DNA of 64,000 nt from Calditrichaceae bacterium (GCA_050173015.1 JBFXLE010000009.1:64001-128000); one strand, 5' to 3'. Counted from the first letter of the stretch, positions 43,722 through 63,059 are shown. Made by a program: numbers and translations. The notes: generated from the sequence alone by a model not told the origin.

Positions 43722-43856
43722 GCCCATAACAATGCATATACTTTATGGCGGGTTCCGTTATGAAAATGAGTATTTTAGTTTCAAATATAAATCAGTGTGG
43801 ACAGAAAGATTTGTCTTCCAAAGTCCGCCACAAAGCATATGCTTCCCGTTATGCAC
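43722..43856 (+). repeat. attC-like site 1
   Basis: GCCCATAAC...GTTATGCAC; inner arms GCATATACTTTATGGCGG / CCGCCACAAAGCATATGC. Confidence 0.85.
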
Positions 43857-43879
43857 AAGCTAAAAAAAGAATATAGTTA

Positions 43880-44737
43880 ATGATTATAATAAATGACAAG
43901 TCAATAGAGAAACTCAGAGACCTGATAAATGAAGAAACTGAATATCGGTCAGGTCCGAAACTCATCGAGTTTTTTAAAGACTTGGGCTTCAATGACTCTT
44001 ATGGTCAAGGATTTCCTTCTCGTTGGAAATATACTGATGATCGCCTTCGCAAAATTAACGGTAAACCAGAATTAGATAAGTGCATCAGAAAATTATTCAA
44101 TCCAGTTAATTTCATTGGCAAAACTTCTGAACTTGATAACCACATCAAAAATCTGAATCAATATTTAGCTTTTGATAAATGGCAGGTAGTTCGTAATGGT
44201 ACAGAAATAACTTTCAAAAAGAAAGATAAGGTTGAACTGCATGATGATTATGCAGAACTGAAAGCAGATGAATTTTTAGATAAAGAATTTGATGATATTT
44301 CAATAGATGCTCTAGGTCTTGATTCTATAGTTTCAGAAGTTCTCAAAATTCGTTTTGTAGAAATAAAGAATTGTTTTGCAGCAAAAGCACATTTGTCGGT
44401 CATTTTTCTTTCAGGCAGTAGTCTTGAAGGAATCCTACTAGGAATTGCTTTGAAGTCACCTACGGAATTCAACCAAGCTAAATCTGCACCTAAAGACAAG
44501 GAAGGCAAAGTCAAACAATTTCCTGATTGGACTTTGAGCCAACTAATTGACGTTACGTTTGAAGTTGGTCTCATCAAGGATGATGTGAAAAAATTTAGTC
44601 ATGCTCTTCGAGACTTCAGAAACTACATTCACCCATATCAGCAAGTAAGCTCGGGATTTAATCCTGATCACCATACAGCAAAAATTTGCTTTCAAGTATT
44701 GAAGGCAGGAGTATTTCAACTATCAAAAAACAAATAA
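43880..44737 (+). CDS. Putative AbiJ-like N-terminal domain plus HEPN-like C-terminal domain protein (cassette 2)
   Basis: N-terminal YRSGPKLIEFF...GFPSRWKYT; C-terminal SVIFLSGSSLEGIL...LRDFRNYIHP. Family assignment is from motif memory. Confidence 0.6.
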   Translation: MIIINDKSIEKLRDLINEETEYRSGPKLIEFFKDLGFNDSYGQGFPSRWKYTDDRLRKINGKPELDKCIRKLFNPVNFIGKTSELDNHIKNLNQYLAFDKWQVVRNGTEITFKKKDKVELHDDYAELKADEFLDKEFDDISIDALGLDSIVSEVLKIRFVEIKNCFAAKAHLSVIFLSGSSLEGILLGIALKSPTEFNQAKSAPKDKEGKVKQFPDWTLSQLIDVTFEVGLIKDDVKKFSHALRDFRNYIHPYQQVSSGFNPDHHTAKICFQVLKAGVFQLSKNK

Positions 44738-45076
44738 ATGGATACTACACAATTTAAAAACGGCTATTTCATTGAGAGAGTTTATCAACCAATCTCAGAA
44801 ACTGAATTCAAGTGTCGACTAATAGTTAAATCAAAGGCGAATAATCAAGAAATTACAGGAATAGAGACTAAAATAAATACCGTTGAGATTGGTCAGGGAT
44901 TAGCAGACTCACAATTTAGCGTTAATCCAATAAGTTGGGAGAGATATTTGAACCAGACAATTACAATGTTATTCAACATGTTGATGCTTCGTCTGAATAT
45001 TACCGACTTGCATAATGTTGACGGAGAAGATAAAATTTCTGAATTCTTTGACGAAAATCCGTTTCACCAAAATTAA
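44738..45076 (+). CDS. Hypothetical protein (cassette 2)
   Basis: 112-aa ORF abutting the upstream stop and ending 8 bp before attC-like site 2. Confidence 0.75.
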   Translation: MDTTQFKNGYFIERVYQPISETEFKCRLIVKSKANNQEITGIETKINTVEIGQGLADSQFSVNPISWERYLNQTITMLFNMLMLRLNITDLHNVDGEDKISEFFDENPFHQN

Positions 45077-45084
45077 AAAAGCCA

Positions 45085-45219
45085 GTGCCTAACATCGGCT
45101 ATAGCAAATGCGGGCTAAAGTGCTATAATGAAAGTAATTACACATAATAAACCAACTGCTAGTCGGACAAGTAAGTACCTTGAAACCCCGCACTTTCCAT
45201 AGCCATGACCGTTAGCTGC
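45085..45219 (+). repeat. attC-like site 2
   Basis: GTGCCTAAC...GTTAGCTGC; arms GGCTATAGCAAATGCGGG / CCCGCACTTTCCATAGCC. Confidence 0.85.
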
Positions 45220-45257
45220 AAGGTTAAGAGCGATACTGCAAAATTGAAAATTAAGAA

Positions 45258-46142
45258 ATGATTTTAGACTATTTAAATAAAACATTTAATAACAGAGAAA
45301 TCGTATTGATTTCCTATTTGACAATTTTCATTATATGGACACTTACACAGAAAAATATTAGACAGTCCATAGTGTCTGTGATTAAAGCATTTATGGCATG
45401 GAAGATACTTGTTTCAATATTTGTGTTGTTACTATATATTGCATTGATTGCTTTTGGATTATTTAAAATTGGACTTTGGGATAAATCCATGATTAAAGAT
45501 ACTGTTTATTGGACTTTTGGGGTCGGATTCATTATTATGATGAATTTTGACAAAGCATTGAAGGAAGAACACTATTTTAAGAACCTTGTCAAAGAAAATT
45601 TTAAAGTCCTTATAATCATTGAATTTATAGTTGGAATTTATGTTTTTGGTATCATCACTGAATTTATTTTAATGCCATTTGTGATTCTATTTTCAATGTT
45701 ATTAGGATACACTGAAGTTTATAAAGAGCATGGACAAGTTCGCAAATTTTTAAATGGAATCTTTGGCATCATAGGTACGATTTATTTAATTTATTCCGGT
45801 TATCATATTTACTCTGATTTTACTGGATTTGCAACTCTGGGGAATCTTAAAACATTTTTATTCCCTTTAATAATGTTTGTTCTATTTTTACCATTTGCAT
45901 ATTCCTTTGCACTATTGGCTCATTACGAGAGCTTATTCGTTCGATTAGGTTTTTTCCTTAAAGACAAAAAATTGAGAAGATTCGCTAAGTGGAGAATATT
46001 ATTGTCAGTAAATTTTAGCATTTTAAGATTAAAACGAATAACACCTGGAATGTTATTTAGTGACTGTTCTACTAGAGAAGATATAAAAAATGAGATAAAA
46101 AATAAAATAAACCCAGCAGCTAACACACAATATAGCCAATAA
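45258..46142 (+). CDS. Hypothetical polytopic membrane protein (cassette 3)
   Basis: 294 aa with about seven hydrophobic segments; the stop codon lies inside attC-like site 3. Confidence 0.8.
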   Translation: MILDYLNKTFNNREIVLISYLTIFIIWTLTQKNIRQSIVSVIKAFMAWKILVSIFVLLLYIALIAFGLFKIGLWDKSMIKDTVYWTFGVGFIIMMNFDKALKEEHYFKNLVKENFKVLIIIEFIVGIYVFGIITEFILMPFVILFSMLLGYTEVYKEHGQVRKFLNGIFGIIGTIYLIYSGYHIYSDFTGFATLGNLKTFLFPLIMFVLFLPFAYSFALLAHYESLFVRLGFFLKDKKLRRFAKWRILLSVNFSILRLKRITPGMLFSDCSTREDIKNEIKNKINPAANTQYSQ

Positions 46143-46254
46143 GGGTTTCAGTGGTATGCAAAGGGTTGTAGTGTAGCCCGCTCCAACTTTTCGTGTAACT
46201 TGATAGGAAATCACCCGCAATCCCTTACTGGCCATATTGTCAAGCGTTAGCTCC
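46116..46254 (+). repeat. attC-like site 3
   Basis: GCAGCTAAC...GTTAGCTCC; arms CAATATAGCCAATAAGGG / CCCTTACTGGCCATATTG. Confidence 0.85.
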
Positions 46255-46310
46255 AAGGCTAAAAAATAGAAACAAAAAGAATAAAATATTTGCCAAAAGG
46301 ATGAAAATAG

Positions 46311-46490
46311 AACGCCGCCTATGCGGCGTTATTGTTTTGCGACGCGGTTGCTTGCGCAGGGTACGGATTTAAGATATATTCAGGAGTAGTTATGTCATAT
46401 TAGTCCCGGGACGACTGAACTGCACACGTCTCAAATAAGTCAATTGATTGAATAAGGAATTCTGTTGATGATATTTTTGAAAGGGATTAG
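46311..46490 (+). pseudogene. Tyrosine recombinase C-terminal remnant, copy 2
   Basis: TPPMRRYCFATRLLAQGTDLRYIQE*L...; near-identical to 41863-42042. Confidence 0.85.
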
Positions 46491-46507
46491 TTAATCGTAA
46501 AAAAAAT

Positions 46508-46580
46508 ATATAAACAATTGTTCATATACCGCTGATTTGGGTGGATAAGAACAATAACATATACACGCACGTTAGGTTGC
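46508..46580 (+). repeat. attI-like site, copy 2
   Basis: TATATAAACAATTGTTCATA...GATAAGAACAATAACATATACACGCAC then GTTAGGTTGC (46571). Confidence 0.7.
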
Positions 46581-46595
46581 ATTAAAAAAGAAACC

Positions 46596-47180
46596 ATGAA
46601 ACTATATCACAGATACAACATAAAGAGAAAACAAGAACATTTATTTTTGGAGTTTATCTTGAATAATATTCCAGGAATAAATTATTTAAAAGAGAATTAT
46701 CGTCTTACAGAAAATGAATATGATTCATCAATTGAGATAAAACCCATAATTGATTCATTAAAAAATGACACTTGGTTACCAAAAAAGCGTAAACAAAATT
46801 GCATTGACATTTTACAGGACATTAAACTTAATCATGACAAGGTCGTAGTATTTGAATCGGTTAATAAAATATCATTTGATTTCACTATTAAAATAGATAG
46901 TGACTTGTTTTTCTTTGAATTACACGAAGACCAACACAAGAAGTTAAAAGTAAATAGACAGTCAAAAATATTTGATATCCAAGGAAATGAAATTTTTGTT
47001 CCTCGTTATTTACAAAGATTATTAAAGGATATTTGGCGCTGGGAGAATCTTGACAACTACAAGATAATTTGGGCTGACTGGTTTATTTCATCATCAAATA
47101 AACTTTCTAACTTGTTGGAAAAAGGAAAAATCGAATACGGAATAGATAATACATTTCAATTTAAAAACTTAGGAATATGA
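46596..47180 (+). CDS. Hypothetical protein, possible PD-(D/E)xK/Vsr-like nuclease (cassette 4)
   Basis: SFDFTIK...FFFELHEDQH and a later RLLKD resemble the D...ExDExQH pattern of DUF559/Vsr-like nucleases. Confidence 0.55.
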   Translation: MKLYHRYNIKRKQEHLFLEFILNNIPGINYLKENYRLTENEYDSSIEIKPIIDSLKNDTWLPKKRKQNCIDILQDIKLNHDKVVVFESVNKISFDFTIKIDSDLFFFELHEDQHKKLKVNRQSKIFDIQGNEIFVPRYLQRLLKDIWRWENLDNYKIIWADWFISSSNKLSNLLEKGKIEYGIDNTFQFKNLGI

Positions 47181-47844
47181 ATATTGAAGAATTGGAACAA
47201 AAGATTGCGAAACTTAGAAACGAAATAAAAAAGGATACTCTAGAACTTGAGAATGTTCCCGAAAGATTTATTTCAGTAATCAAAGGAGAACTGAAAACAA
47301 AAGAAGGTAGATTAATTGATTTGGAGTTAAAACTGGATGATTTAATTGAAAATGGAATTACTGATAGGCTGCAAAAGCCAATTGATGAATTACAAGAGAA
47401 AATTAAATCGTTTATTCTTGATTATCAATTTCAATATCCACAGGACAAAGAAATGTTTATCTATCAAATTGCATTTGAAGAAAATGATGATGAACTCTTG
47501 ATAAGCTTAAAACCAAAGGAAAAAACCACAAATCGATTGAACAAATACAACAAGGATTTACTAAAAGTTACAATAGAGAACAAAGTAATACAAGAACCAA
47601 AAGCTACTGACCTTTTATTAAGACTTTAAAGCACTTTTCAATTAAAAAAGTTAAATCACTTGACCTTGTATTCTTAGGAGTTCCCTTAATCGCTGAATAT
47701 AGCCATGACAAATATCAATAGAAACAAATATCAAACAACCTTTTCGTTTTGACTCAGATTTCCAAAGATAAAAAGAAAGAAATTCTTGAATATATTGCAG
47801 AAAAATTCAATCAGAGTATAAAAATCGAATTTGTGAAGAAATAA
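47177..47844 (+). pseudogene. Coiled-coil protein gene disrupted by a frameshift and an internal stop (cassette 4)
   Basis: Track ORF ends at 47629; restoring one base near 47611 continues ...TDTFIKTLKHF...GVPLIAEY...KYQ*(47719)KQI...KIEFVKK* to a TAA at 47842-47844 next to attC-like site 4. Confidence 0.65.
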
Positions 47845-47845
47845 C

Positions 47846-47982
47846 GCAACCTAGCACGCAATAAAAAACATAGGGCAGAAAGTGCAAAAATTGAACGACA
47901 TAACATTTAATAAACGACTTGGTAACTTGACAGGGAAGTGCTTCGAAATGCCAAACGTTTCATATACGTAACCGATAGCGTT
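47846..47982 (+). repeat. attC-like site 4 (degenerate cores)
   Basis: GCAACCTAGC (AAC to AGC) ... GATAGCGTT (GTT to GAT); arms still partly complementary. Confidence 0.75.
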
Positions 47983-48070
47983 CATTGTAAGGAGACAAAA
48001 CAACCGTCAGAATAATTATGGTATTTTTGCTGCATGAAGAAAAAAGAAAATATGGAAATAGCCACCGCAC

Positions 48071-48133
48071 AAATGGCATATTTGGTTTTTGCCGACGCAC
48101 AGCCAAACGCTGAAAAAACCAAAAGAGCCATTT
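48071..48133 (+). repeat. Inner hairpin motif H1 (5' end of cassette 5)
   Basis: AAATGGC-ATA-TTTGGTTTTT ... AAAAACCAAA-AGA-GCCATTT. Confidence 0.75.
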
Positions 48134-48163
48134 CTTGCCATCTCACGACTGAAAGATAATGAT

Positions 48164-51010: not shown

Positions 51011-52548
51011 TGAGAGAAGATTGGATTGACGTTGAATTAAAAGATGTTTGCCTAAGTTCAAAGGGAAAGAAACCAAGTGTTTTAGAAAAAAATAATTCTG
51101 AAACTGCTAATGTGCCATATATAAATATCAAAGCTTTTGAGAAAGGTATAATAGAAGAATACACTGATGGTGAAAAATGCAATTTATGTGAAGATGGTGA
51201 CTTGTTAATGGTTTGGGATGGTGCAAGGGCTGGGCTTACAGGTAAAGCTAAAAAAGGTGCTGTTGGTTCAACACTAATGAGAATTGAAGAAGTAAAAGGT
51301 ATTGAAAAGGAATATTTATATTATTTTCTTTTATCACTTTTTACAAAGATTAATACAAATCCAAGAGGTGTTGGTATTCCACATGTTGAACCACGAATAC
51401 TATGGTTGTCAAAAGTATTAATTGTTAGCAGTCCCATCCAACGAGCAATAGTATCCAAAATCGAAGCCCTGTTTTCCGATTTGGACAACGGCATCGCCAA
51501 TTTAAAAAAAGCACAGGAGCAATTAAAAATATACCGTCAAGCGGTTTTGAAAAAGGCCTTTGAGGGCGAACTCACAAAAGAATGGCGTGAAAAGATTGTA
51601 CAGACGCCCAATTTGGGCGTATCAACGCCCCTGCCAACAGCCGAAGAACTGCTAAAACAAATAAAAGAAGAACGCCAAAACCACTACAACCAACAAATTG
51701 AAGACTGGAAAAAAGCGGTTAAGGAATGGGAGAAAAATGGGAAAGTTGGGAAGAAGCCAAGTAAGCCTAAGCAGCAAAAAGAATTGCCACCTTTAAATGA
51801 GGAAGAATTGAATGAGCTGCCGAAATTGCCAAAGTCAATGGTATGGACACAACTTGGAAATGTGGTTTGGTCTGTAAAAGATGGACCTCATTTTAGCCCT
51901 AAATATTCAAAAACTGGTATACCCTTTATCTCAGGTGGGAATATTAGACCAGAAAAAATTGACTTTGAAAAAGTAAAATATATTTCAGAAGAGCTTCATA
52001 AGGAACTAAGTCGAAGATGTAAACCACAATTAGATGACATTCTATACACCAAAGGCGGAACAACTGGAATTGCAAAAGTTAATACATATAAATTTGATTT
52101 TAATGTTTGGGTGCATGTAGCAGTATTAAGACCAATCCAAATGATTTTACCATTATATTTACAACATGTTTTAAATTCTTCTCATTGTTATAAACAATCG
52201 CAAGAATATACACATGGGGTTGGTAATCAAGATTTAGGTTTAACAAGAATGATTTTAATCACACTGCCTATTTGTTGTAAAGAAGAACAAACCCAAATCG
52301 TCCAAGAAATAGAAAGCCGTTTATCGGTTTGCGACAAAGTAGAGCAAAGCATAACCGAAAGCCTTGAAAAAGCCGAAGCCCTTCGCCAAAGCATTCTTAA
52401 AAAAGCATTTGAGGGCAAATTATTAAGCGAAGCTGAAATAGAACAATGCAAAAAGGCAGCCGATTACGAACCTGCGGCAAAATTGTTGGAACGAATAAAA
52501 CAGGAAAAAATAAATAAGGATAATAATAAAAAAACAAAATCAAAATAA
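51010..52548 (+). CDS. hsdS: Type I restriction enzyme, S subunit (cassette 5)
   Basis: Two TRDs with repeated conserved blocks Q..IVS.IE...RQAVLKKAFEGEL and EQTQIVQEIE...RQSILKKAFEGKL. Confidence 0.94.
   Translation: MREDWIDVELKDVCLSSKGKKPSVLEKNNSETANVPYINIKAFEKGIIEEYTDGEKCNLCEDGDLLMVWDGARAGLTGKAKKGAVGSTLMRIEEVKGIEKEYLYYFLLSLFTKINTNPRGVGIPHVEPRILWLSKVLIVSSPIQRAIVSKIEALFSDLDNGIANLKKAQEQLKIYRQAVLKKAFEGELTKEWREKIVQTPNLGVSTPLPTAEELLKQIKEERQNHYNQQIEDWKKAVKEWEKNGKVGKKPSKPKQQKELPPLNEEELNELPKLPKSMVWTQLGNVVWSVKDGPHFSPKYSKTGIPFISGGNIRPEKIDFEKVKYISEELHKELSRRCKPQLDDILYTKGGTTGIAKVNTYKFDFNVWVHVAVLRPIQMILPLYLQHVLNSSHCYKQSQEYTHGVGNQDLGLTRMILITLPICCKEEQTQIVQEIESRLSVCDKVEQSITESLEKAEALRQSILKKAFEGKLLSEAEIEQCKKAADYEPAAKLLERIKQEKINKDNNKKTKSK
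51598..51626. repeat. Degenerate REP palindrome in frame inside hsdS
   Basis: GTACAGACGCCCAATTTGGGCGTATCAAC, translated as VQTPNLGVST. Confidence 0.8.
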
Positions 52549-52599
52549 TTGTGAAACGCGTTGGACGTATTTGTCGCATTTGACGCGTTGGACGCATTG

Positions 52600-52700: not shown

Positions 52701-53312
52701 ATGCCCGATAAATTTCAAAACAAATACCGCATACCATCGGCACGATTGCAAACATGGGATTATGGAAGCAATGGAACCTATTTTATAACCATTTGCACCC
52801 AAAACCGTGAACATTATTTTGGTGAAATTACAGACGGTAATATGATATTATCCGAAATAGGAATTTTGGCGAACAAATATTGGAATGAAATACCAGAACA
52901 TTTTCCATTTGTCAATTTGGATGAATTTGTGGTAATGCCCAACCACGTGCATGGGATTATTATCATTGATAAACCCGATGATGGACGGGATGATGGGCGG
53001 GACGTTGGACGGGACGTTGGACGGGACGTAGAGACGCCCAAATTGGGCGTCTCTACCAATACCAATACCAATACCAATACCAATCATCAAACCGCCACGG
53101 CATCCGAAAAATGGAAACCGGCATCATTGGGGGTAATTATCAACCAATATAAACGAATGGCAACCATTAAATCGCGTAAAATCCACGCTGATTTTGGTTG
53201 GCAATCCCGTTTTTACGACCAGATCATACGAAACAACGAATCGTATGAAAAAATCAGAAATTATATTGTCAACAACCCATTGAAATGGGAAGAAGATAAA
53301 TTTTACAATTAA
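52701..53312 (+). CDS. REP-associated tyrosine transposase (RAYT, Y1 HUH family)
   Basis: SARLQTWDY...YFITICT, VVMPNHVHGII (HUH), WQSRFYDQIIRN...YIVNNP. Confidence 0.92.
   Translation: MPDKFQNKYRIPSARLQTWDYGSNGTYFITICTQNREHYFGEITDGNMILSEIGILANKYWNEIPEHFPFVNLDEFVVMPNHVHGIIIIDKPDDGRDDGRDVGRDVGRDVETPKLGVSTNTNTNTNTNHQTATASEKWKPASLGVIINQYKRMATIKSRKIHADFGWQSRFYDQIIRNNESYEKIRNYIVNNPLKWEEDKFYN
53028..53056. repeat. GTAG-type REP palindrome in frame inside the RAYT gene
   Basis: GTAGAGACGCCCAA-A-TTGGGCGTCTCTAC (VETPKLGVST), flanked by 12-bp and 6-bp tandem repeats. Confidence 0.88.
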
Positions 53313-54848: not shown

Positions 54849-54863
54849 GCCCAGCCCAAAAAC

Positions 54864-54921: not shown

Positions 54922-54990
54922 TCTTGCCAACGCACGGACAGAGAATGCAGCAAAAATGAAAGATAAATTGGCTGGAAAAATAAACAACGA

Positions 54991-55123
54991 AACGCTAACA
55001 CGCGGTATAAAACATTGGGGTTTAAGTATTTATTCGAGCGTTCTACCCCGCATCAAGTTCGGTGTAACTCGACAGGATAGTAGCCCGCAATCCCTTACGA
55101 GTCATACACTCAAAGTTAGTTCC
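54991..55123 (+). repeat. attC-like site 5
   Basis: AACGCTAAC...GTTAGTTCC; shares CCCGCAATCCCTTAC with site 3 and CGCAATCCCTTAC with site 7. Confidence 0.82.
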
Positions 55124-55179
55124 AAGCCTAAAAAATAGAAACAACAAGAATAAAATATTTGCCAAAAGGATGAAAATAG

Positions 55180-55361
55180 AACGCCGCCTATGCGGCGTTA
55201 TTGTTTTGCAACGCGGTTGCTTGCACAGGATAGGGATTTAAGGTATATTCAGGAGTAGTTAGGTCATAATCGTTCCGGGACTACTGAAATTTGCGCACAT
55301 CTCAAAAAAGTCTATTGATAAAAACAGTAATCCTACGGATGATATCTTTGAAAGGGATTAG
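55180..55361 (+). pseudogene. Tyrosine recombinase C-terminal remnant, copy 3
   Basis: TPPMRRYCFATRLLAQDRDLRYIQE*LGHNRSGTTEICAH: the catalytic Tyr position reads Cys. Confidence 0.87.
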
Positions 55362-55377
55362 ATAATTGTAAAAGAAA

Positions 55378-55451
55378 TATATAAACAATTGTTCATACAC
55401 CGCCAATTTGGGCGGATAAGAACAATAGAATATATACGAACGTTGTGTGGC
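55378..55451 (+). repeat. attI-like site, copy 3
   Basis: TATATAAACAATTGTTCATACACCGCCAATTTGGGCGGATAAGAACAATAGAATATATACGAAC then GTTGTGTGGC (55442). Confidence 0.7.
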
Positions 55452-55484
55452 ATTAGAAGTAACTTACATAAAAAAGGGTGACTT

Positions 55485-56072
55485 ATGGAAATAAAATTTG
55501 ATGTGGAAATACAAGATGAAGAGAAAGAACTTCTGAAAACGATATTACATTGTGATAATGATGAAGACTTAAATAATCTCTTGAATAAATTAGGCCGTTC
55601 TTCATTTGAAGATATTAGAAGAATGACAATTGGACAAAAAGTATTTACTCGTGGAAGAGATATTTTAGAATATCGGTTATTTAATTTAATAAAGTTTTTC
55701 TTCGATGGGAAAATACCAGACGAACAAAAAATATGTGATTTATTCCAAATAACGGCAACTGAAAGTCGAGCATTTATTCGCTCAATAATGTCAAAGTATC
55801 AATATGACTTAAAAGAAACAATATCTTCAACATTAAAAGAACAAGTAGAAAATATTCAAAAAGAAGAAAATGAAGAAGTTTATAAACTTTCCATTCAAAA
55901 CCAGTATTTCAAAGATGAATTAAATAGAATATTAGGAACAATAGACACAAGTTTACCGATTATTGAAAAAGAGCGGGGAACTATTTCTACTTATGTAATT
56001 CAAACATCATCTTACCAGAAGTTATGTGAACATTTTGGCATTGAACTAGAAGAAGAAAACAATGAAAACTGA
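55485..56072 (+). CDS. Hypothetical protein with possible HTH (cassette 6)
   Basis: 195 aa; PDEQKICDLFQITATESRAFIR is HTH-like. Confidence 0.75.
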   Translation: MEIKFDVEIQDEEKELLKTILHCDNDEDLNNLLNKLGRSSFEDIRRMTIGQKVFTRGRDILEYRLFNLIKFFFDGKIPDEQKICDLFQITATESRAFIRSIMSKYQYDLKETISSTLKEQVENIQKEENEEVYKLSIQNQYFKDELNRILGTIDTSLPIIEKERGTISTYVIQTSSYQKLCEHFGIELEEENNEN

Positions 56073-56481
56073 TTTACCTAATTTATTAACTGCATCAAGT
56101 ATTCTATTGGGAATTATTACTGCATTATATGGTTTATTTTTTCCTGCGATTAATTCAATTTTAGTAATAAAATCTAAGCCCCATAAGGTTGATAATAAGA
56201 AGGCCTACAGTGAAAGCAAGGATATTATAAAAGCAAAATATATTCCATTATTAATTGGTTCGTTAGTAATTACATTGATAAACATACCAGAGCTGTTTTC
56301 TCAATTAAGAAATAGTTTTGTTGCAATAAAAACTAGTGGAATAGAGAACACAACATATGATACGTTAACAGCATCATTTATTGTCGTTTGCCTTTTTATG
56401 ATTTTCATTACGATAATGATGATAGCAACTGGTTTTAAGTTAAGAAAGAAAATAAAAGAACTTAATCCAAATGAACAATAA
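56062..56481 (+). CDS. Hypothetical membrane protein, about three TM helices (cassette 6)
   Basis: 139 aa, overlaps the upstream gene; stop lies 1 bp before attC-like site 6. Confidence 0.78.
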   Translation: MKTDLPNLLTASSILLGIITALYGLFFPAINSILVIKSKPHKVDNKKAYSESKDIIKAKYIPLLIGSLVITLINIPELFSQLRNSFVAIKTSGIENTTYDTLTASFIVVCLFMIFITIMMIATGFKLRKKIKELNPNEQ

Positions 56482-56482
56482 C

Positions 56483-56619
56483 GCCACACAACAAAAAATA
56501 TAGTGCATTTGGCAGATGGTGCTAAAAATGAAAATGATTGCAATAAATGAACATAGTAGTAAATTGAAAGCTTGGAGCGTTGAAATGCCAAACGCACCAT
56601 ATTCAAACCGTTGTATGCC
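56483..56619 (+). repeat. attC-like site 6
   Basis: GCCACACAAC...GTTGTATGCC; arms AATATAGTGCATTTGGCA / TGCCAAACGCACCATATT. Confidence 0.85.
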
Positions 56620-56643
56620 ATGCTGGAAACGAGCTAACCGCAC

Positions 56644-56705
56644 AAATAGCACATTTGGTTATTGCTGACACAAAAGCAAAGGCTGAAAAACTAAAAGAGC
56701 TATTT
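56644..56705 (+). repeat. Inner hairpin motif H3 (5' end of cassette 7)
   Basis: AAATAGC-ACA-TTTGGTT ... AACTAAA-AGA-GCTATTT; homologous to H1. Confidence 0.75.
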
Positions 56706-56737
56706 TATTGTCAAACGCACATAGACTAAAACTAAAA

Positions 56738-59700
56738 ATGAATGAAGAAATAGTATCAGCAAGTGGAGAAAGAGCAGCAATGGGAGGCTATTTGCCTCAA
56801 TTTGATGAGTTCGCTTGGTTTGTCTATTTGAATCTAATAAATAAAAAGCTTGAATGGATACGAATAGCAGACTCCAAGGCTGAAAAACTAGATGATATAC
56901 AGTATTCTACTCATTCAGAAATTCATGCATACCAAGTAAAATGGACTATCGCTGATGCAAATATATCATTTGCAAATTTTACGGATTTGTTTCCTCTTAT
57001 CACCTCTAGTTGGAAGAGTTTAAAAACAGCTAATCCTAGCAAAAAAATAATTCCTCATTTAATCACTAACAAACCTATTTCCTCCCACGACAGCTTAAAG
57101 GTAGGCGATACAAAAATCGGTTCATTTCAAGACTTCGTCTCAGAAGTTTGGGTAAAGCTAAAATCAAATCAATCAATTGATGATAAGTGGAAACAAGTTC
57201 TTGAGGAACTCAAAAAGAGTTCAAAACTCAATGATTCTGAATTTGGAGAATTTATCATCTCTTTTGATTTTCAACCAGACTATAAACAAAAACAGTTTAG
57301 TATAGGAAATATTAAATACTCTAAAGAAGACGAAGACCTTCAACAGATCAGTCGATATATAGTACAAAAAGTTGCTAGCCCGAAAAGAGTCGTTGAATTT
57401 ACTCGCCAAGAAATTATTAAAGAATTAGGTTGGTCTGATAGATTTAAAACAATTTTTAATCACGAGTTAATAGTCGATAGACAAAGATACCAGCCGATTC
57501 AATCGACAATTGACCTGTTAAATTCAAAGTTAGAGGAGCATAAAAATGGATACCTGTTTTTGCTAGGTGGCCCAGGTTCTGGAAAATCTACCTTATTGAA
57601 TCAATGGTCAAAAGGCCTTAAAACACGAATAATACGATACTACGCCTTTGATTTCGTTAATCCATCTTCACACTTAAACTTTTATGAAAGAGGAAATGCT
57701 ACCCATCTTTTTTTCGATTTAGTTTTTCAATTAAAGGAAGCTGGAATATATAAAAGAGACATTCTTCCATATAAAGACTTACTTTTTCTAAAAGATGTAT
57801 TCAATGAGCAATTAAGTGCAATTGGAGAGGACTTTGTGACAAATGGTCAATCGACCATAATATTGATTGATGGTCTAGATCATGTTCCTAGGGAATACAA
57901 ATCAACAACTAATAGTTTCCTACGAGAACTTCCTTTACCATCTTCTCTCCCAAACGGGGTCTTCATCATTTTAGGTAGTCAATCTTATGAACTTGAAGAC
58001 ATTCAACAGGAAATTAAAACTGAATTTCAGAAAGGAAATAGAACCATTCAAATTGATCCACTTAAAAAGGAGGAAGTATACAAGTACATTGATAATCTTG
58101 ATACTTCAATTCAACTTAATGGTTCTCAAAAGCTGCAAATATTTGAGAAATCAGAAGGACACCCGTTATACCTGTCATACTTAATTGAAAAAATCAATAA
58201 CGCAGATTCTATTAACGATACAATCGAATCTTTTGAAGTTATTGATGGTAGTATTGATAATTATTACAAAAAAATATGGGAGCCTATCCAGAAAGAAGAT
58301 AGCCAAATTCAATTCTTAGGTTTAATTGCGAGAATTAATGGTTTGATCAAACTTCAGTTCATTCAGGAATGGGACTTCCAACCGAGTGTTTTAAAGTCCT
58401 TTCGTGAAAAGGCCAGATTTCTGTTTAATGAAACCGAAAAAACTTTGTCTTTCTTTCATAATTCGTTCAAGCAATTCCTTCTTCATCATACCTCTTTAAA
58501 TTACTTAACAGATGAGTTTGATCCGACAATTAACGTCAATTATCATAGTCAACTTACTGATTATTATGTAAAATCAGAGATTGAAAAATCCTGGAAACAG
58601 AATCATCACCTATTTCAGGCTAAACAATATGATAAGTTTATTTCAGAAGTTACCCCAAATAGTATTACTGAACAGTTACTTAACTTCAGACCAGCAGAAG
58701 AAATTAAGCAGGATGCAAAATTGGGAGTTGAAATAGCAAGACAGAATAAGGACATTAATACTCTGGTAAGATATCTGTTTTCATTAGCAGAAATTGAAAG
58801 AAGATTATTCAATATTGATCCCACATCCTTTATAGAAGAACTTTTGTACCTAAATAAATACGACTTAGCAAGGGATTATCTAAGAACTGGCAACACCCTC
58901 CATTGTAGCGAATCGTACGCATTTAAAGCATGTCGATTGTTTATTGAATCTGGGCACAAATCAGAAGGAGCAACTTTATACAATTTGGCTTATCCAGAAA
59001 TCATTACAGATTCCGGGATACATATTGATGATTCTCACAGATATGAAGAAATAAGAGATTCTTTAGAAGAATGGATTTATACTTCTCCCTATTTTGAAGC
59101 AACCGAGAATATTTTCTCAATAATTGAGAAAATTCAATTCTCAGGTAGCATACGGAAAAACAGGTTTGAAGAAGAAGAATCTGATTTACTTTTAAGGTTA
59201 CTCTCTAATCTTGGTTATAGTTTAGTGGATCAAAACAAGTGGGATGATTTTAATAAAGTCATAGAAAAAATAGATTCGAGGTCTTCAAGAGGAAGGAATT
59301 CTCTTTTCCAACTTATAAAGTACGCTATCGAGCAATGCCTTGACTTAAAAGATAGTAGTCGAGTGAATGAATATCTGTCATTTTTAACCACTCATTTCAC
59401 AAAAGAGAAGACAAAATCCATTGGCAAAATATTCATTGCAGATTTAGTCTATAAAGTCACTAGAGACCTAAATGAAACATATAGTTGGATTAAGGAAGTT
59501 GAGCAACCATCTAATGTGGGTAAAGACCAGCTAGGATATGATGATTCGTTAGACGCCTTTCTTCCATTAATCAAACTTAACAAGTTACTTAACCTATGTG
59601 GAAAAGGAGTTTCGATTACGTCTGCAATTCCATCTGTTGCGAAAGGTACTGATGAAGAAGTTTTAGTGGAGTTTGAACGAATGTTATGTATTACCACTCA

Positions 59701-62700
59701 AATTCTAGCCGAGGGCATTCTTCAAACACCAATGCCAGGTGATCCTATTAAAAGAGTATTTCCAATTGTTCGGTTTTATTACAAAGAAATATCCCACCGA
59801 AACAGCTATTGGTATAAGCTGACACAAGCAAAAGGCCAATATTATGATTTTTTGATTTCGGCGGTGTCTGAATTGGGTACTGAAAAATTAGAATTATTAG
59901 GAGATTATTTGTTCAGTGAGTTTAAGAATATTCCAAAATATTGGAGTACAAGTGTCCAGCGGAAAATCATTAAATCCCTCTTGAATAAAGGGTTTAATGC
60001 TAAAAAAGCAGTAATAAAGTTGAGATCCATAGAGGATTCCATGTTGGAAGGTCACGATATAGATGGCCGTATAACCGAATGCTTGGCCCACTCAAAAGTA
60101 TGGTTCATTTTAGGCAAGCTAGATGAAGGTGAAATATGGCTCAAACAGGCTATTCAAGAATCTATTGGAGTAGGATATAGAAAAGATTATCAATTTAGTA
60201 CATGGATTGAATGGTTAAGAAAAATAAACCATAAAGACCCATCAAAAGCTACTGAAAGAATAAAGTGGTTCTTATCTCATTTAAAACATATTAAAGAAAC
60301 CACGGAGGGAAGGGCTTATTGGAATGCTTCTGAAGAATTATTAGAAGTCGCATATGAACACAATCTGGAAGATGGCTTAGAGCAGGCTATTTGGCAATTA
60401 AAGAACGATCTAATAGACTTTAAAGATTCAATTGCTCTTTTCATAAAATATTTTATGATAAAAACAAAAAGTAAAGAAGAGTTCAAAAGTATTGTTCAAC
60501 TATATAGTGATTTATATCTGCTTCTTGCTGAATCTGCCAATTCTTCCCTGCTCAAATCTATCTTAGAAAAAGGGCATGAAATTTTAAAAGAAGATTTTTT
60601 AGTAGAACATGCTCAAGCCATTATTTCGGCAATAGAAATTAAAGCTTACGAAGAAACCAGACATTACTTACTATCTGAAATTGATAACTTCTATACATCA
60701 AAAGGGCTAAAAGCAGAAGACTATTATTCACGGTTTAATATACCGGCAAAAAGCGAAAGAAATAGTTCATCAACATCTTCTAACACATTGACTTTAAAGA
60801 CAGATCATGAAAAGATTGATGAAAGTGAAGTACTAAAACGAGTTACAAATTTTGAAGATTTCAAAAAAATCATTCAAGAAGAAGATCAGGCAAATTCATT
60901 TTTTAATTGGTCAAAGGTTATAGATAAAATAGCTCCATTATTGTCTTCAAGTCAAATTGAAGAAATCACCAAACTGGCTAGAATAGGAAGGAGAGAGTCA
61001 GATTTCTATGCTAAATTAAGTGAGGCTGCCTTGGAGCTAGAAAACACAGAACTCGCAACTAGTTTAGCCAATAAAAGTATTGAGTTATCGAGCGAATCGG
61101 GGTGGGTAAAATATTATGATGGAGGAACAAGAATCAATGCATTTAATGCACTAAAACGAATCAATCCTGCAATATCATCTAATAAGGCATTTGAAGTATT
61201 TGCTCATGATATAGTAACCAGTAATTATCCAAGTTCATATATCGAACATCTTGAAGACATCGTTCCACTTTTAACAGAAAATTATGTTGAGGAAGAGCTT
61301 TGGCATGAAATATATGGTTACCTGCAAAGACTGATGTCGAATAGTAAACCGGTTGAGGATTTACCTGTTCTTCCATCATTAAATCGTCCAATCATAGAAA
61401 CCTTAGTCGATTATATGGTGTATTTATCACAGAGTCCCGTCTCAATAATAAAGGAGCAATCTTTACAGCTATTGGCAAAATATATAAATCAAGATAATGA
61501 CTATGCTTTGACTCAATTACTGAATGGACGTTTAGATGATTACTCAAGTATGAACGTGATGATGAAATTAACTGCGTTCAACTCCCCCAAAGTCCATTTG
61601 CTTAAATCAAAGATCAATAGTTTAGCTATATCAAATGACTATCAATTAAGAGAAAGCTCAAAACAAATACTTTCCTCAATTCAAGAAGAAATTCCAACTC
61701 CCAAAAACATCGAATTATCTAAAGTATACTCTTTCCATATTCCAGAAACTGAAAAACCAGATTTTAGAAAAGAGATTGACCCTTATTTCCCAGAAGTTGA
61801 TACTAATGACCCCCGTGATCTGATACGACCATTTGAATTTTTAATCAAAATCTTATCTGAGGAGTCTGGGATTAATGAATCTAACCTTATATATAGAGCC
61901 TACTCGATCATGAAAGAAATTGGTCGAGAGGAGGAATGGTCCGTTGAGTATGAAAAAAAGCTTAGAAATCATTTAGAAGAAATTTACCTAAGATACTCTT
62001 ACCCTAGACCAAGGGTAATTGCGGCTCGAAGAGCCATAATGCATGTCACCAATGAATTAATAGATTCTGGAACAATTGATGATGAGCGAATTCAGAAACC
62101 TTTTATATCACATGATTATGCGGTTCTGTTTTTTAATGAAATAGCAAAACCTGAATTCATTCAAACTATTAAAGAGAGAGATTTTGGAGGAGTTGGCAAT
62201 GATTGGTTAGATCGAATAGGTGAATCAGAAAGATTAAACGAATCAATATTAGACTATAATGATAACTTCAAGATTATTGCAGAATATAATCAAGTTAAAA
62301 ATTTAGATTGGGGTTCTCCTACTGAAGAATACATGTACCAAATTGCGGTTAATGAGGAGTTGGATGAAGAAGATAATTACATTTTTGGCTCTGTTTTTCA
62401 CCAATTAAGCAGTAACTATCATGATTTGAGAAGTGGTGGACATTTTATTGTTGTAGTCAGGGATCATAGATTTGACCAATTTGATCTGAAATCTAAGTGG
62501 ATTGCAATTAACCCTGTTTTGGCTAGATACTTAGGATGGGAGCCTGAAACAACCAAATTATTTGCTTGGAAAAACTCGCAAGGTGAATTGATGGCGGAAT
62601 CAATTTATTGGTCAAATGGAAATATTAACATGACACCTCGTAAGGATGGAGAAGTCGGGGAAGGGTGGTTTGTTATTGTTTCCAAAGATGGATTAGAGAA

Positions 62701-62809
62701 GATAAAATCTATCGAGAAGAAATTGTTTCTGCAAAAGAAATTAACAAGATCTAAATTTGAAGATTCAGTTCTAATGAATAATCAAGCAATTAGTGTGACA
62801 AAAATTTGA
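56738..62809 (+). CDS. PD-(D/E)xK nuclease - STAND/NACHT NTPase - helical repeat protein, Avs/NLR-like (cassette 7)
   Basis: N-terminal AAMGGYLPQ...KLDDI...AYQVKW nuclease motif, Walker A GGPGSGKST, Walker B ILIDGLD, EGHPLYL (GxP), long helical C-terminus. ATG 56738 is preferred over track start 56708. Confidence 0.85.
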   Translation: MNEEIVSASGERAAMGGYLPQFDEFAWFVYLNLINKKLEWIRIADSKAEKLDDIQYSTHSEIHAYQVKWTIADANISFANFTDLFPLITSSWKSLKTANPSKKIIPHLITNKPISSHDSLKVGDTKIGSFQDFVSEVWVKLKSNQSIDDKWKQVLEELKKSSKLNDSEFGEFIISFDFQPDYKQKQFSIGNIKYSKEDEDLQQISRYIVQKVASPKRVVEFTRQEIIKELGWSDRFKTIFNHELIVDRQRYQPIQSTIDLLNSKLEEHKNGYLFLLGGPGSGKSTLLNQWSKGLKTRIIRYYAFDFVNPSSHLNFYERGNATHLFFDLVFQLKEAGIYKRDILPYKDLLFLKDVFNEQLSAIGEDFVTNGQSTIILIDGLDHVPREYKSTTNSFLRELPLPSSLPNGVFIILGSQSYELEDIQQEIKTEFQKGNRTIQIDPLKKEEVYKYIDNLDTSIQLNGSQKLQIFEKSEGHPLYLSYLIEKINNADSINDTIESFEVIDGSIDNYYKKIWEPIQKEDSQIQFLGLIARINGLIKLQFIQEWDFQPSVLKSFREKARFLFNETEKTLSFFHNSFKQFLLHHTSLNYLTDEFDPTINVNYHSQLTDYYVKSEIEKSWKQNHHLFQAKQYDKFISEVTPNSITEQLLNFRPAEEIKQDAKLGVEIARQNKDINTLVRYLFSLAEIERRLFNIDPTSFIEELLYLNKYDLARDYLRTGNTLHCSESYAFKACRLFIESGHKSEGATLYNLAYPEIITDSGIHIDDSHRYEEIRDSLEEWIYTSPYFEATENIFSIIEKIQFSGSIRKNRFEEEESDLLLRLLSNLGYSLVDQNKWDDFNKVIEKIDSRSSRGRNSLFQLIKYAIEQCLDLKDSSRVNEYLSFLTTHFTKEKTKSIGKIFIADLVYKVTRDLNETYSWIKEVEQPSNVGKDQLGYDDSLDAFLPLIKLNKLLNLCGKGVSITSAIPSVAKGTDEEVLVEFERMLCITTQILAEGILQTPMPGDPIKRVFPIVRFYYKEISHRNSYWYKLTQAKGQYYDFLISAVSELGTEKLELLGDYLFSEFKNIPKYWSTSVQRKIIKSLLNKGFNAKKAVIKLRSIEDSMLEGHDIDGRITECLAHSKVWFILGKLDEGEIWLKQAIQESIGVGYRKDYQFSTWIEWLRKINHKDPSKATERIKWFLSHLKHIKETTEGRAYWNASEELLEVAYEHNLEDGLEQAIWQLKNDLIDFKDSIALFIKYFMIKTKSKEEFKSIVQLYSDLYLLLAESANSSLLKSILEKGHEILKEDFLVEHAQAIISAIEIKAYEETRHYLLSEIDNFYTSKGLKAEDYYSRFNIPAKSERNSSSTSSNTLTLKTDHEKIDESEVLKRVTNFEDFKKIIQEEDQANSFFNWSKVIDKIAPLLSSSQIEEITKLARIGRRESDFYAKLSEAALELENTELATSLANKSIELSSESGWVKYYDGGTRINAFNALKRINPAISSNKAFEVFAHDIVTSNYPSSYIEHLEDIVPLLTENYVEEELWHEIYGYLQRLMSNSKPVEDLPVLPSLNRPIIETLVDYMVYLSQSPVSIIKEQSLQLLAKYINQDNDYALTQLLNGRLDDYSSMNVMMKLTAFNSPKVHLLKSKINSLAISNDYQLRESSKQILSSIQEEIPTPKNIELSKVYSFHIPETEKPDFRKEIDPYFPEVDTNDPRDLIRPFEFLIKILSEESGINESNLIYRAYSIMKEIGREEEWSVEYEKKLRNHLEEIYLRYSYPRPRVIAARRAIMHVTNELIDSGTIDDERIQKPFISHDYAVLFFNEIAKPEFIQTIKERDFGGVGNDWLDRIGESERLNESILDYNDNFKIIAEYNQVKNLDWGSPTEEYMYQIAVNEELDEEDNYIFGSVFHQLSSNYHDLRSGGHFIVVVRDHRFDQFDLKSKWIAINPVLARYLGWEPETTKLFAWKNSQGELMAESIYWSNGNINMTPRKDGEVGEGWFVIVSKDGLEKIKSIEKKLFLQKKLTRSKFEDSVLMNNQAISVTKI

Positions 62810-62831
62810 CCATGAATCCAAACGCTCGCAT

Positions 62832-62893
62832 CCATACACATTGGCAAATCGCACAGGACAGCCACACCAGCCAAAATTTGCCAAAGAGTATGG
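62832..62893 (+). repeat. Inner hairpin motif H4 (3' end of cassette 7)
   Basis: CCATAC-ACA-TTGGCAAAT ... ATTTGCCAA-AGA-GTATGG; homologous to H2. Confidence 0.75.
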
Positions 62894-62932
62894 CTGCACC
62901 AACGCCGCCAGAAAAGAAAATGAAAAAGCACG

Positions 62933-63059
62933 GGCATACAACAATGTGTATAATTCATAAGGGTTTCAGCGGATTGCAAGCCGTATCACCCGCATCAAAT
63001 TCGGGTGGTAACTTGATAAGTAAAAAGTTCGCAATCCCTTACGAATCATAGTTAGCTCC
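62933..63059 (+). repeat. attC-like site 7 (right spacer deleted)
   Basis: GGCATACAAC...GTTAGCTCC; arms TATAATTCATAAGGG / CCCTTACGAATCATA joined directly to GTT. Confidence 0.8.

Follow-up and report, generated by a model that had tools for sequence, protein, structure and literature searches.

Fixed G.T wobbles in the attC-like repeats of a Calditrichaceae defence island as candidate strand and arm marks on a folded bottom strand

How might a cassette recombinase recognise its strand, and the correct arm of that strand, in sites whose stems carry no bulged bases? The question is raised by a 64,000-nt stretch of a Calditrichaceae bacterium genome (GCA_050173015.1, JBFXLE010000009.1:64001-128000; hereafter the window, with positions counted from its first letter), in which attC-like repeats, each an imperfect palindrome of about 123 nt, lie between defence genes. 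Classical attC sites, as set out in PMC5027507, carry extrahelical bases on the arm that faces AAC, at positions 16, sometimes 20, and 23/24 and separated by a 6-bp stem, and a central spacer of five to six unpaired bases per arm; the same text places IntI cleavage inside 5'-AAC-3'. The I2 helix of IntI docks the extrahelical bases (PMC7790495), and these two sources hold that recombination of single-stranded attC depends on this docking. We propose, with a probability of roughly 0.6, that in an integron-like cassette array these repeats serve as recombination sites and work as a folded bottom strand, with G.T wobbles and a one-sided loop as the marks of strand and arm.

Layout of the island and its cassette boundaries

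The array forms a defence island of 23.7 kb, in which only decayed copies of the recombinase gene remain. Its parts are as follows.

41790..41990, +: recombinase remnant 1, the decayed 3' end of a tyrosine recombinase gene, at the left island edge
42062..42128, +: attI-like short hairpin site 1 (AAC...GTT, 67 nt), after remnant 1
42255..43663, +: cassette 1, Thoeris ThsB (TIR) and ThsA (Macro), by Pfam (PF08937, 2.3e-21; PF20016, 8.2e-28)
43728..43850, +: attC-like site s1, 123 nt, N4 CTTT/AAAG
43848..45213, +: cassette 2, ending in site s2 (45091-45213)
45211..46248, +: cassette 3 (ORF 45258-46142), ending in site s3
46122-46248, +: attC-like site s3, 127 nt, N4 GCCA/TGGC, the end of cassette 3
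46309..46434, +: recombinase remnant 2 (profile match, translation, tblastn)
46510..46576, +: attI-like hairpin site 2
47853..47976, +: decayed attC-like site (AAC to AGC, GTT to GAT), covariance-model match of 67.7 bits
48089..54848, +: type I restriction-modification cassette of about 7 kb with hsdR, hsdS, a 203-aa ORF and hsdM, by Pfam (ResIII, EcoEI_R_C, Methylase_S, N6_Mtase)
54997..55117, +: attC-like site with unpaired N4 blocks (AAAC versus GAGT), covariance-model match of 58.1 bits
55088..55312, +: recombinase remnant 3 (profile match, translation, tblastn)
55381..55447, +: attI-like hairpin site 3
55485-56481: two-ORF cassette upstream of site s6
56490..56612, +: attC-like site s6, N4 GTGC/GCAC
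56708..62809, +: cassette with a single 2033-aa NACHT/STAND ATPase gene, by Pfam (NACHT, ATPase_2, AAA_16)
62940..63053, +: attC-like site s7, N4 ATTC/GAAT, right spacer deleted, partial covariance-model match of 47.4 bits

The right boundary of the island was taken from a reverse search, and the right flank (63100-64000) had no match in a genome of the same genus (G001). The two ORFs of cassette 2 (43880-44737 and 44738-45076) had no Pfam match. This genome holds site arrays without a working recombinase gene, together with decayed platform copies, and its site type is not classical.

The paired arms described in the first-pass annotation can be read directly in the sites at 43728, 45091, 46122, 56490 and 62940. 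The right arm, AC-N4-CATA-N8/9-GTT, is present at the first four, with the right spacer missing at 62940; the compensating N4 blocks (CTTT/AAAG, GCCA/TGGC, GTGC/GCAC and ATTC/GAAT) agree with that account, down to the single mismatch at 45091, and a top-strand A faces C at both of the places it had named in all five sites (mismatch positions 3 and 8). The left-arm pattern AAC-N6-TATA-N4-AT occurs six times in the window, always on the + strand, against a chance expectation of 0.8, and none of 100 shuffles reached six. Three features had been overlooked: a third A.C (top) / G.T (bottom) pair abuts the inside of the AAC/GTT box (AACA...CGTT), three further, variable base pairs beside TAT/ATA cut the unpaired spacer to 2 nt versus 4-5 nt, and two more copies of the site, at 47853 and 54997, have decayed. 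The bottom-strand fold consists of a 5-6 bp AAC/GTT box closed by G.T, an asymmetric internal loop with 4-5 nt on the AAC arm and 2 nt on the opposite arm, and a bulge-free 18-bp stem whose arms, TATG-N4-GT and AT-N4-TATA, form two further G.T pairs. Counted from the 3' end, the fixed wobbles fall at nucleotides 8, 17 and 22.

As in integrons, cassette homology begins at the GTT of the upstream site. Past sites s3, s5 and s7, identity steps up at the GTT, from about 65% to some 95%. Metagenome comparison, interpreted for four runs, all of them contigs and with no joints listed (small word shares occur in many other metagenomes), revealed copies of cassettes 2 and 3 in unrelated metagenomes, about 96% identical and with unlike flanks. 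Cassette 2 is matched over 43848-45125 by a 2960-nt contig of run X2, with 51 differences and different flanks, and a 996-nt contig of run X4 matches 45211-46171 (cassette 3) with 32 differences. The homology begins at 43848 and 45211, the G of the upstream GTT, in line with the classical crossover at G/TT of R'; because GTT is common to all sites, the junction is located to this triplet rather than to a single bond. Site s1 was itself found in a different context on a metagenome contig.

These boundaries bear on whether the repeats are recombination sites at all. Miniature transposable elements, terminators or antisense RNA structures between genes would likewise be intergenic, structured and repeated, and the window matched no Rfam family at gathering thresholds, which leaves room for an undescribed RNA. 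We nevertheless regard such readings as very improbable: the repeats keep a fixed orientation in arrays that adjoin a recombinase gene in many lineages, they contain the AAC/GTT core, complete cassettes are found in other contexts and their homology stops at GTT, and the A.C mismatches fall on the mRNA-sense strand.

Conservation, covariation and strand folding

A covariance model built from seven sites, all from this genome, was used to gather larger sets. Of 39 genomes of the order, 27 yielded sites, about 130 in total; a further 40 sites lay near recombinase relatives (mostly from Bacteroidota) and 184 in viral contigs. The site was absent from 12 of the 39 genomes, and several site-bearing genomes of the order showed no recombinase of either class discussed below; many of these assemblies are fragmented. 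An exact-pattern scan of four loci with the short class of recombinase recovered one site only, a 52-nt short form in G002, and the other sites needed the covariance model. Every larger set was gathered with a model containing G.U pairs, and the alignments were fitted to its structure; the two further sets (other phyla and viral) were collected via the recombinase, not via the site.

The first-pass annotation had proposed two invariant mismatches. Their conservation extends to the larger sets, but the wobbles number three, and the middle one is not invariant in viral relatives. In the order set, G.T occupies the box-proximal, middle and distal positions in 100/104, 92/106 and 100/106 sites; among the 93 distinct sites from its other genomes, the counts are 90, 80 and 89. 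The 40 sites beside recombinase relatives in other phyla gave 39/39, 32/40 and 39/40, and 118 viral-contig sites gave 113/117, 52/118 and 114/118. The box-proximal and distal wobbles are thus kept in 94-100% of sites in all three sets, whereas the middle wobble is kept in 87% and 80% of chromosomal sites versus 44% of viral sites. Since the middle pair varies freely in viral sites, the model does not force G.U; the same 44% means that at least one of the two marks first described is dispensable. Polarity is fixed throughout: the bottom-strand G always lies on the AAC arm with T opposite, never reversed, and no U.G type is listed at the three wobble pairs in any of the three site sets. Cytosine deamination in an exposed strand is a conceivable origin of the G.T pairs, but we rejected this origin, since deamination would not hold three positions constant in a single polarity.

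Between these marks, the arms covary as those of a folded single strand would, in all three sets and against shuffle controls, which bears out the structural code suggested at first pass. In the order set, 93.0% of 2506 cells are paired, compared with 70.1% after shuffling and 32-56% in slid controls, and double changes occupy 593 cells versus 222 in shuffles (0 of 500 shuffles reach 593). Pairing is 94.3% versus 70.2% shuffled in the recombinase-neighbour set and 97.1% versus 67.2% in the viral set. Stem positions between and around the G.T marks covary freely, while the three G.T pairs retain place and polarity. The AAC/GTT pairs are present in 97-99 of 106 sites, with variable outer box pairs. 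The long stem is bulge-free in 93/105 sites on the 5' arm and 89/105 on the 3' arm, and the internal loop measures 4-5 nt in 97/105 sites by 2 nt in 102/105. In both respects (89-93 of 105 sites bulge-free; a 4-5 x 2 nt loop), the sites depart from the standard attC model of PMC5027507, a fit to which would have refuted the earlier description.

A counterpoint is that the facing conserved bases can also be read as duplex DNA sequence, apart from wobble geometry. The conserved bases could be sequence contacts in a duplex, with the arms (TATA...AT and AC...CATA) serving as unequal inverted repeats bound by the recombinase and the A/G differences telling left from right, like unequal transposon ends. 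G.T geometry would then be irrelevant, or its effect would be limited to a slight thermodynamic bias. Next to the wobbles, the pairs hardly vary (TAT/ATA in 91-103 of 106 sites; T-A beyond the distal wobble in 100 of 106), so that a sequence motif exists in addition to a shape; the energy bias described below is modest, and a thermodynamic effect of G:T alone is the published reading of classical sites (PMC5027507). However, the arms covary freely between the conserved bases and stay complementary, which duplex recognition does not need, and the facing bases are never corrected to Watson-Crick pairs in two phyla and viral contigs, which points to selection on the mispair itself. On balance, we judge recognition of a duplex unlikely.

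Folding of both strands, which the first-pass annotation had suggested as a check, favours the bottom strand in six of six sites. The bottom and top strands reach -20.3 and -16.1 kcal/mol in s1, -24.2 and -18.0 kcal/mol in s3, and -16.8 and -12.6 kcal/mol in s6. Across the larger set, the bottom strand folds better in 83/105 sites with a mean difference of -1.52 kcal/mol, a modest bias, and the top strand folds equally well or better in 22/105. Mispairs per site are 2.98 versus 1.17 (n = 105). For mobile-integron attC, a bias towards the bottom strand through G:T mispairs has been published before (Nivina 2016, PMC5027507): the paper reports that bottom-strand G:T, against top-strand A and C, favours bottom folding, with a mean of 1.24 versus 0.39 mispairs and 2.12 kcal/mol over 263 sites. 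The bias reported there is statistical, has no fixed place and accompanies extrahelical bases, whereas the sites described here have three fixed positions, fixed polarity and no bulges.

The top strand could conceivably be the substrate, its three A.C mismatches being open or flippable and the longer unpaired stretch opposite AAC acting like classical bottom-strand bulges. The extra unpaired bases (4-5 versus 2) do lie opposite 5'-AAC-3', as in classical bottom strands (PMC5027507). Yet the cassette junctions are at the GTT end (R'), not the AAC end, and the bottom strand is the better folder in most sites. Junctions at the GTT end, taken with IntI-like cleavage inside 5'-AAC-3' as given in PMC5027507, indicate the bottom strand, and we think a top-strand substrate quite improbable.

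The recombinase class and classical sites in relatives

The first-pass annotation had drawn on IntI, known to recombine the folded bottom strand and to read extrahelical bases. The partner enzyme here is not IntI: remnant matches, alignment and profile scores point instead to a XerA-like recombinase without the IntI-specific insertion. Remnant 1 gives a fragment match to TIGR02249 with an in-frame stop, and its best tblastn match is to a short class of 298-aa recombinases (60.8 bits, versus 35-42 bits for true IntI). Nothing in this genome (G000) exceeds the TIGR02249 cut-off of 265 bits. The attI-like site 1 is homologous to the hairpin that follows an intact 278-aa recombinase gene in G025 (contig C272). 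The short class is without alignment columns 215-230 and 236-250, which are common to seven of seven aligned true IntI proteins. For L097 and L023, two intact relatives of the remnant, the TIGR02249 scores are 214.3 and 221.2 bits, below its cut-off, and the NF040815 (XerA) scores 238.7 and 239.8 bits, above the curated whole-protein cut-off of 220. The best solved relatives of the short class are the XerA structures 4a8e and 5hxy, each matched in one stretch; IntI4 2a3v matches in two. The window remnants are C-terminal, of about 60 residues, and not scorable on NF040815. By sequence, then, the decayed recombinase is assigned to a XerA-like class without the IntI-specific insertion.

Could the repeats still be ordinary attC sites of ordinary IntI integrons, with the wobbles a lineage signature of no special role? 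True IntI genes (TIGR02249 above cut-off) are present in 21 of 41 related genomes, wobble sites adjoin true IntI gene fragments, both broken, on two contigs (G005:C154 and G035:C13), and PMC10295459 (Table 1) reports an IntegronFinder CALIN in one member of the phylum. The distribution of the two systems argues against this reading, which we hold to be improbable. IntI occurs without wobble sites in G003, G004, G015, G031 and G014, and the converse is seen in G002 and G025; the sites adjoin short-class relatives in 17/79 genome loci and 40/80 viral loci; and the window's own remnant belongs to the short class.

Arrays near true IntI genes provide natural controls, and in G003 and G007 they consist of bulged sites of the classical kind and not of wobble sites. 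The 15 sites that follow a true IntI gene in G003 have a box of 7 bp and a 5x5 loop, and their bulges lie at positions 16 and 23. G007 carries both systems, with bulged sites (again at positions 16 and 23) near its true IntI gene and wobble sites near a short recombinase. A model of the classical sites (R2, from five near-identical G003 sites with an effective number of 1.2) found 17 sites in G003 and, in eight other genomes including this one, weak matches only (30-39 bits). With matches this weak, the model cannot map classical sites across the order, and the classical control is limited to G003 and G007. At three true-IntI loci (L106, L108 and L109), whose contigs end within about 500 bp of the gene, a generic scan for AAC/GTT hairpins gave nothing convincing.

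A proposed mode of recognition and its relation to known systems

We infer a strand-determinant role for the wobbles and the loop asymmetry. The recombinase would act on the folded bottom strand, where the fixed wobbles and the one-sided loop would tell it which strand and which arm it has bound. The wobbles lie near the classical bulge positions 16 and 23 and may take over the function that classical integrons assign to extrahelical bases and the I2 helix; they may also weaken the top-strand hairpin through its three A.C mismatches. The stronger proposal, that fixed G.T wobbles functionally replace extrahelical bases and that a XerA-like recombinase without I2 selects strand and arm by reading them on single-stranded, folded DNA, is more tentative, and we put it at somewhat less than even odds. 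In the literature searched, which covered few subscription journals and no supplements, we found no description of fixed wobbles replacing bulges, nor of this system.

The sites share much with the classical attC/IntI system (class 1 and the Vibrio chromosomal integron; VchIntIA-VCR 2A3V): an AAC...GTT inverted core, an imperfect palindrome at the 3' cassette end in uniform orientation, covarying arms, a non-coding strand that folds more stably and a cassette boundary at GTT. The platform is likewise a tyrosine recombinase gene plus a first site. They differ from classical attC in having no extrahelical bases at 16 and 23/24, three G.T pairs at fixed places, and a 4-5 x 2 nt loop where classical arms each leave 5-6 nt unpaired. 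They also have a conserved TATG/TATA stem motif and a length held at about 123 nt in chromosomes. At the level of the system, a short hairpin also makes up the first site, the enzyme is without the I2 insertion and below the IntI model cut-off, and cassettes reach 6-7 kb.

Xer systems offer a second comparison. The dif and pdif sites are 28-bp duplexes with two 11-bp arms and a 6-bp spacer, in contrast to wobble sites of about 123 nt whose covarying arms lie about 80 nt apart. In CTX phage, a folded single-stranded attP is recombined by XerC/XerD, so that a Xer-type recombinase without an I2 helix acts on a single-stranded hairpin with mispaired positions. CTX attP differs in being one phage attachment site that integrates at dif, not an exchangeable cassette array.

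If the proposed reading is correct, hairpin cassette exchange would proceed without I2, the domain regarded as what chiefly sets integron integrases apart as an innovation, and would be widespread in Calditrichota, Bacteroidota and their phages, in a system able to move 6-7 kb cassettes with complete defence systems. The wobble sites form a large natural cassette-site family with neither bulges nor an I2-bearing enzyme, yet with folded-substrate covariation and GTT junctions. Three fixed wobbles and a one-sided loop would constitute an alternative, testable grammar for strand choice, and the family would provide a natural comparison for the origin of the I2/bulge system.

The array resembles sedentary chromosomal integrons as an anti-phage store (Darracq et al. 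2024, 10.1101/2024.07.02.601686). That study describes streamlined, small defence systems fitting cassette size limits and lists Bacteroidota among integron-free clades; it is one of two papers considered here that treat Bacteroidota as having few or no integrons. Our data suggest that Bacteroidota and their phages hold cassette arrays that present integron finders may miss, some with whole defence systems. In contrast to the small systems described by Darracq et al. (2024), the full type I restriction-modification operon and the 2033-aa NACHT gene in the window each constitute a single cassette.

Arms and mismatches of the repeat sites

The attC-like repeats between the defence cassettes, each about 123 nt long, share the left arm AAC-N6-TATA-N4-AT, which matches six times in the window, always on the plus strand. 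About 0.8 matches are expected by chance, and 0 of 100 shuffles gave six. Reading the sequence at 43728, 45091, 46122 and 56490 yields right arms of the form AC-N4-CATA-N8/9-GTT paired to these left arms; at 62940 both arms are present and the right spacer is missing. In an unbiased arm-versus-arm scan of the whole genome, A faces C at the identical two positions in 5/5 sites. The arm pattern and two A.C positions that the first-pass annotation described in five sites are thus borne out, as are its N4 blocks, including the single mismatch at 45091. A covariance-model search found two extra sites in the window, at 47853-47976 and 54997, which are evidently sites 4 and 5 of that annotation. The former is decayed (AAC to AGC, GTT to GAT), and the N4 blocks of the latter have lost pairing.

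Both annotated mismatches are real in the window, but the total is three. The overlooked pair, also A.C on the top strand and G.T on the bottom strand, lies immediately inside the AAC/GTT box, the outer inverted core; we call it box-proximal, and the two stem wobbles middle and distal. Three more variable base pairs, likewise absent from the annotation, adjoin TAT/ATA, so that only 2 nt on one arm and 4-5 nt on the other are left truly unpaired. The arms are unequal as proposed, with an unpaired part smaller than the 6 versus 8-9 nt first given.

Conservation and covariation in larger site sets

Our covariance model R1, built on the bottom strand of seven sites from the source genome, matches 15 places in that genome (E up to 1); across the order it finds about 130, spread over 27 of the 39 genomes. 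Among 108 aligned matches from the order (106 distinct), 93.0% of cells are paired, versus 70.1% in shuffles; compensatory double changes occupy 593 cells versus 222, the covariation score is 0.561 versus 0.163, and slid controls drop to 32-56% paired. G.U stands at the three positions in 100/104, 92/106 and 100/106 sites (90, 80 and 89 of the 93 distinct rows from other genomes), and between the two stem wobbles all four pairs are mixed, with AU, CG, GC and UA occurring.

To avoid the circularity of site-based searching, loci were also gathered through the recombinase, a short, XerA-like tyrosine recombinase that lacks the IntI-specific I2 insertion. At 17 of 79 reference-genome loci encoding its relatives, mostly in Bacteroidota, 40 sites lie within 10 kb; 94.3% of their cells are paired versus 70.2%, with G.U in 39/39, 32/40 and 39/40. 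Viral contigs hold 184 matches at 40 of 80 such loci, often in dense arrays with 300-600 bp spacing. The viral alignment took the best 118 of the 184 (E up to 1e-6; 39 of the 40 loci, one duplicate locus being left out) and gave 97.1% paired versus 67.2%, with G.U in 113/117, 52/118 and 114/118. The arms therefore covary in all three sets. The annotation's claim that both mismatches are invariant holds in nearly all sites of the larger sets for the distal pair and fails in viral sites for the middle one, which the counts across the three sets mark as lineage-specific. The free variation of the middle pair also shows that R1 is not forcing G.U. Nearly all sites retain the box-proximal and distal wobbles, with G always on the AAC arm.

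According to the IntegronFinder papers, Bacteroidetes have almost no integrons, Bacteroidota are named among integron-free clades by Darracq et al. (10.1101/2024.07.02.601686), and a survey records one CALIN in a member of the Calditrichota phylum (PMC10295459). The general idea that G:T mispairs favour the bottom strand is not new, having been published for attC sites of mobile integrons (Nivina et al. 2016, PMC5027507). Our literature searches found no published fixed-position, fixed-polarity wobbles in bulge-free sites tied to an I2-less recombinase; supplementary tables might list such arrays. The original observation is confirmed and generalised and its interpretation as a whole is partly supported: a folded single-strand substrate and a non-classical grammar have good support, but we infer the causal role of the wobbles and loop asymmetry.

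Strand folding, classical attC sites and the recombinase

In single-stranded DNA folding, the bottom strand of six sites forms a continuous 18-19 bp stem, with an internal loop of unequal sides and the AAC/GTT box closed. In every one of the six it folds more stably than the top strand (bottom/top, kcal/mol: -20.3/-16.1, -17.3/-11.1, -24.2/-18.0, -16.8/-12.6, -22.0/-20.2, -23.0/-22.8). Across 105 distinct sites, the mean bottom-top difference is -1.52 kcal/mol, the bottom strand being better in 83, equal in 2 and worse in 20; minimum-energy folds contain 2.98 G.T pairs on the bottom strand versus 1.17 on the top. Folding both strands, a check the annotation had suggested, thus favours the bottom strand, and a folded single-strand substrate is well supported.

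In classical attC sites, as described by Nivina et al. (2016, PMC5027507), the arm opposite AAC carries extrahelical bases at positions 16 and 23/24 and sometimes also at 20, and a stem of 6 bp separates the outermost two; the central spacer is unpaired over five to six bases per arm, and the terminal structure is variable. Most wobble sites have no such bulges: the long stem lacks an extra base on the 5' arm in 93/105 sites and on the 3' arm in 89/105, and the internal loop measures 4-5 nt (97/105) on one side and 2 nt (102/105) on the other. Numbered from the bottom-strand 3' end, the T's of the wobbles are nucleotides 8, 17 and 22; the classical bulges, at 16 and 23, are close by without coinciding with them. 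The sites therefore do not fit the standard attC model, and a non-classical site grammar is well supported.

Genomes of the order that contain true IntI, integron integrases above the TIGR02249 cut-off, serve as controls. One is the complete genome G003, where 15 arrayed sites follow such a gene. Each of them has a 7-bp box and a 5 x 5 loop, then three pairs and a bulged G at 16, then a further six pairs and a bulged T at 23. A second genome, G007, has sites in divergent orientation with bulges at 16 and 23, or three bulges, by the true IntI gene on contig 1; its wobble sites go with the short recombinase on contig 3. Each of three true IntI genes (G003:C1:4864876-4865817, G007:C15:47435-48373, G007:C1:15530-16468) has one in-frame TGA. 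Two classical bulged sites by true IntI on G007 contig 1 (L201, 11368-11471 and 12132-12227) have an AAC/GTT box also closed by G.T (AACG...TGTT), so the box-proximal wobble may predate the two in the stem and be more general than they are. Another genome (G002:C1; L023, 12687-12754) has a 52-nt short site form about 1.3 kb from a 298-aa recombinase gene, with the same arms and wobbles and a 6-nt loop; the arm grammar therefore does not need the ~80-nt centre of the chromosomal sites.

No source-genome protein reaches the IntI cut-off in a profile search. The window contains decayed C-terminal recombinase remnants, each followed by a 67-nt AAC...GTT hairpin:

41801-41953, recombinase remnant
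46309-46434, recombinase remnant
55088-55312, recombinase remnant

The longest remnant scores 60.8 bits to the 298-aa short class, versus 35-42 bits to relatives' true IntI and 51 bits to the genome's own Xer-like protein. After a 278-aa member in another genome (G025:C272) comes a hairpin that is clearly a homologue of the window's, with a wobble site about 1.3 kb beyond. Intact short-class members reach 214-221 bits against TIGR02249 (cut-off 265) and 239-240 bits against the XerA model NF040815 (cut-off 220). Among solved structures they come closest to archaeal XerA (4a8e and 5hxy), aligned in a single stretch; IntI4 (2a3v) aligns in two. In an alignment of nine short-class and seven true IntI proteins, two segments bearing the IntI hallmark motif are missing from the short class. 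Extrahelical bases are recognised and docked by the I2 helix, according to Escudero et al. (2020, PMC7790495), so the absence of bulges and the absence of I2 go together. The source genome has a second array (L019, G000:C5:153649-163462), with five R1 matches, two of them decayed, after another remnant (93-aa open frame).

Cassette boundaries and site orientation

The sites lie in a 23.7-kb, AT-rich island that runs from 41700 to about 65466, past the window end (G000:C9:105700-129466). It is absent from a genome of the same genus, where about 130 bp separate the flanking M49 peptidase gene from the transporter gene. No recognisable terminal site was found at its right end (VWA-domain gene and small membrane protein). 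The same sequence follows the sites at 46122, 54997 and 62940, and identity rises from about 65% within the sites to about 95% exactly at GTT. Cassettes 2 (43848-45125, 51 differences) and 3 (45211-46171, 32 differences) each occur in contigs from unrelated metagenomes with unlike flanks, and in both the homology starts with the G in the GTT of the upstream site. The first site by itself (43728-43850) occurs in a third metagenome context. These patterns follow integron cassette logic. Should cleavage lie within 5'-AAC-3', as for IntI (Nivina et al. 2016, PMC5027507), the bottom strand is indicated.

In the window and at one Winogradskyella locus, the order is recombinase, first site, cassettes, and the G.T strand is non-coding. 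The viral contig L224 has ten small ORFs at 3987-8750, a site after each, with ORFs and G.T strand on one strand; its array lies upstream of the recombinase gene, and gene orientation relative to the site is opposite to that in the window. With the array placed on the same side of the platform (recombinase gene plus attI-like first site) in both kinds of locus, G.T polarity is equal and gene direction differs, judged from one locus each. Constant polarity despite differing gene direction is consistent with a mark that the recombination machinery, not gene expression, reads.

Approximately 5-8% of sampled words from 43600-47700 also occur in metagenomes from ice, sediment, sludge, marine and bioreactor sources (runs X2-X21). 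They were single cassettes or single sites in the four runs examined, so individual cassettes appear to circulate widely. A unit of leader, recombinase remnant and attI-like hairpin is present at 46253-46576 and 55120-55447, and a third copy begins at 63051-63120. The unit comes after three different sites and always starts at GTT; it looks as if the platform itself was inserted or duplicated in cassette fashion. Between hsdS and hsdM of a type I R-M cassette, a 203-aa ORF (52701-53312) has as its sole match an IS200-like Y1 transposase, weak and sub-threshold (E 0.005, 17.3 bits versus cut-off 23). Several contig ends of the source genome (C2, C9, C12, C28, C33, C39) share a ~55-nt sequence, presumably one end of a multicopy insertion sequence at which the assembly breaks.
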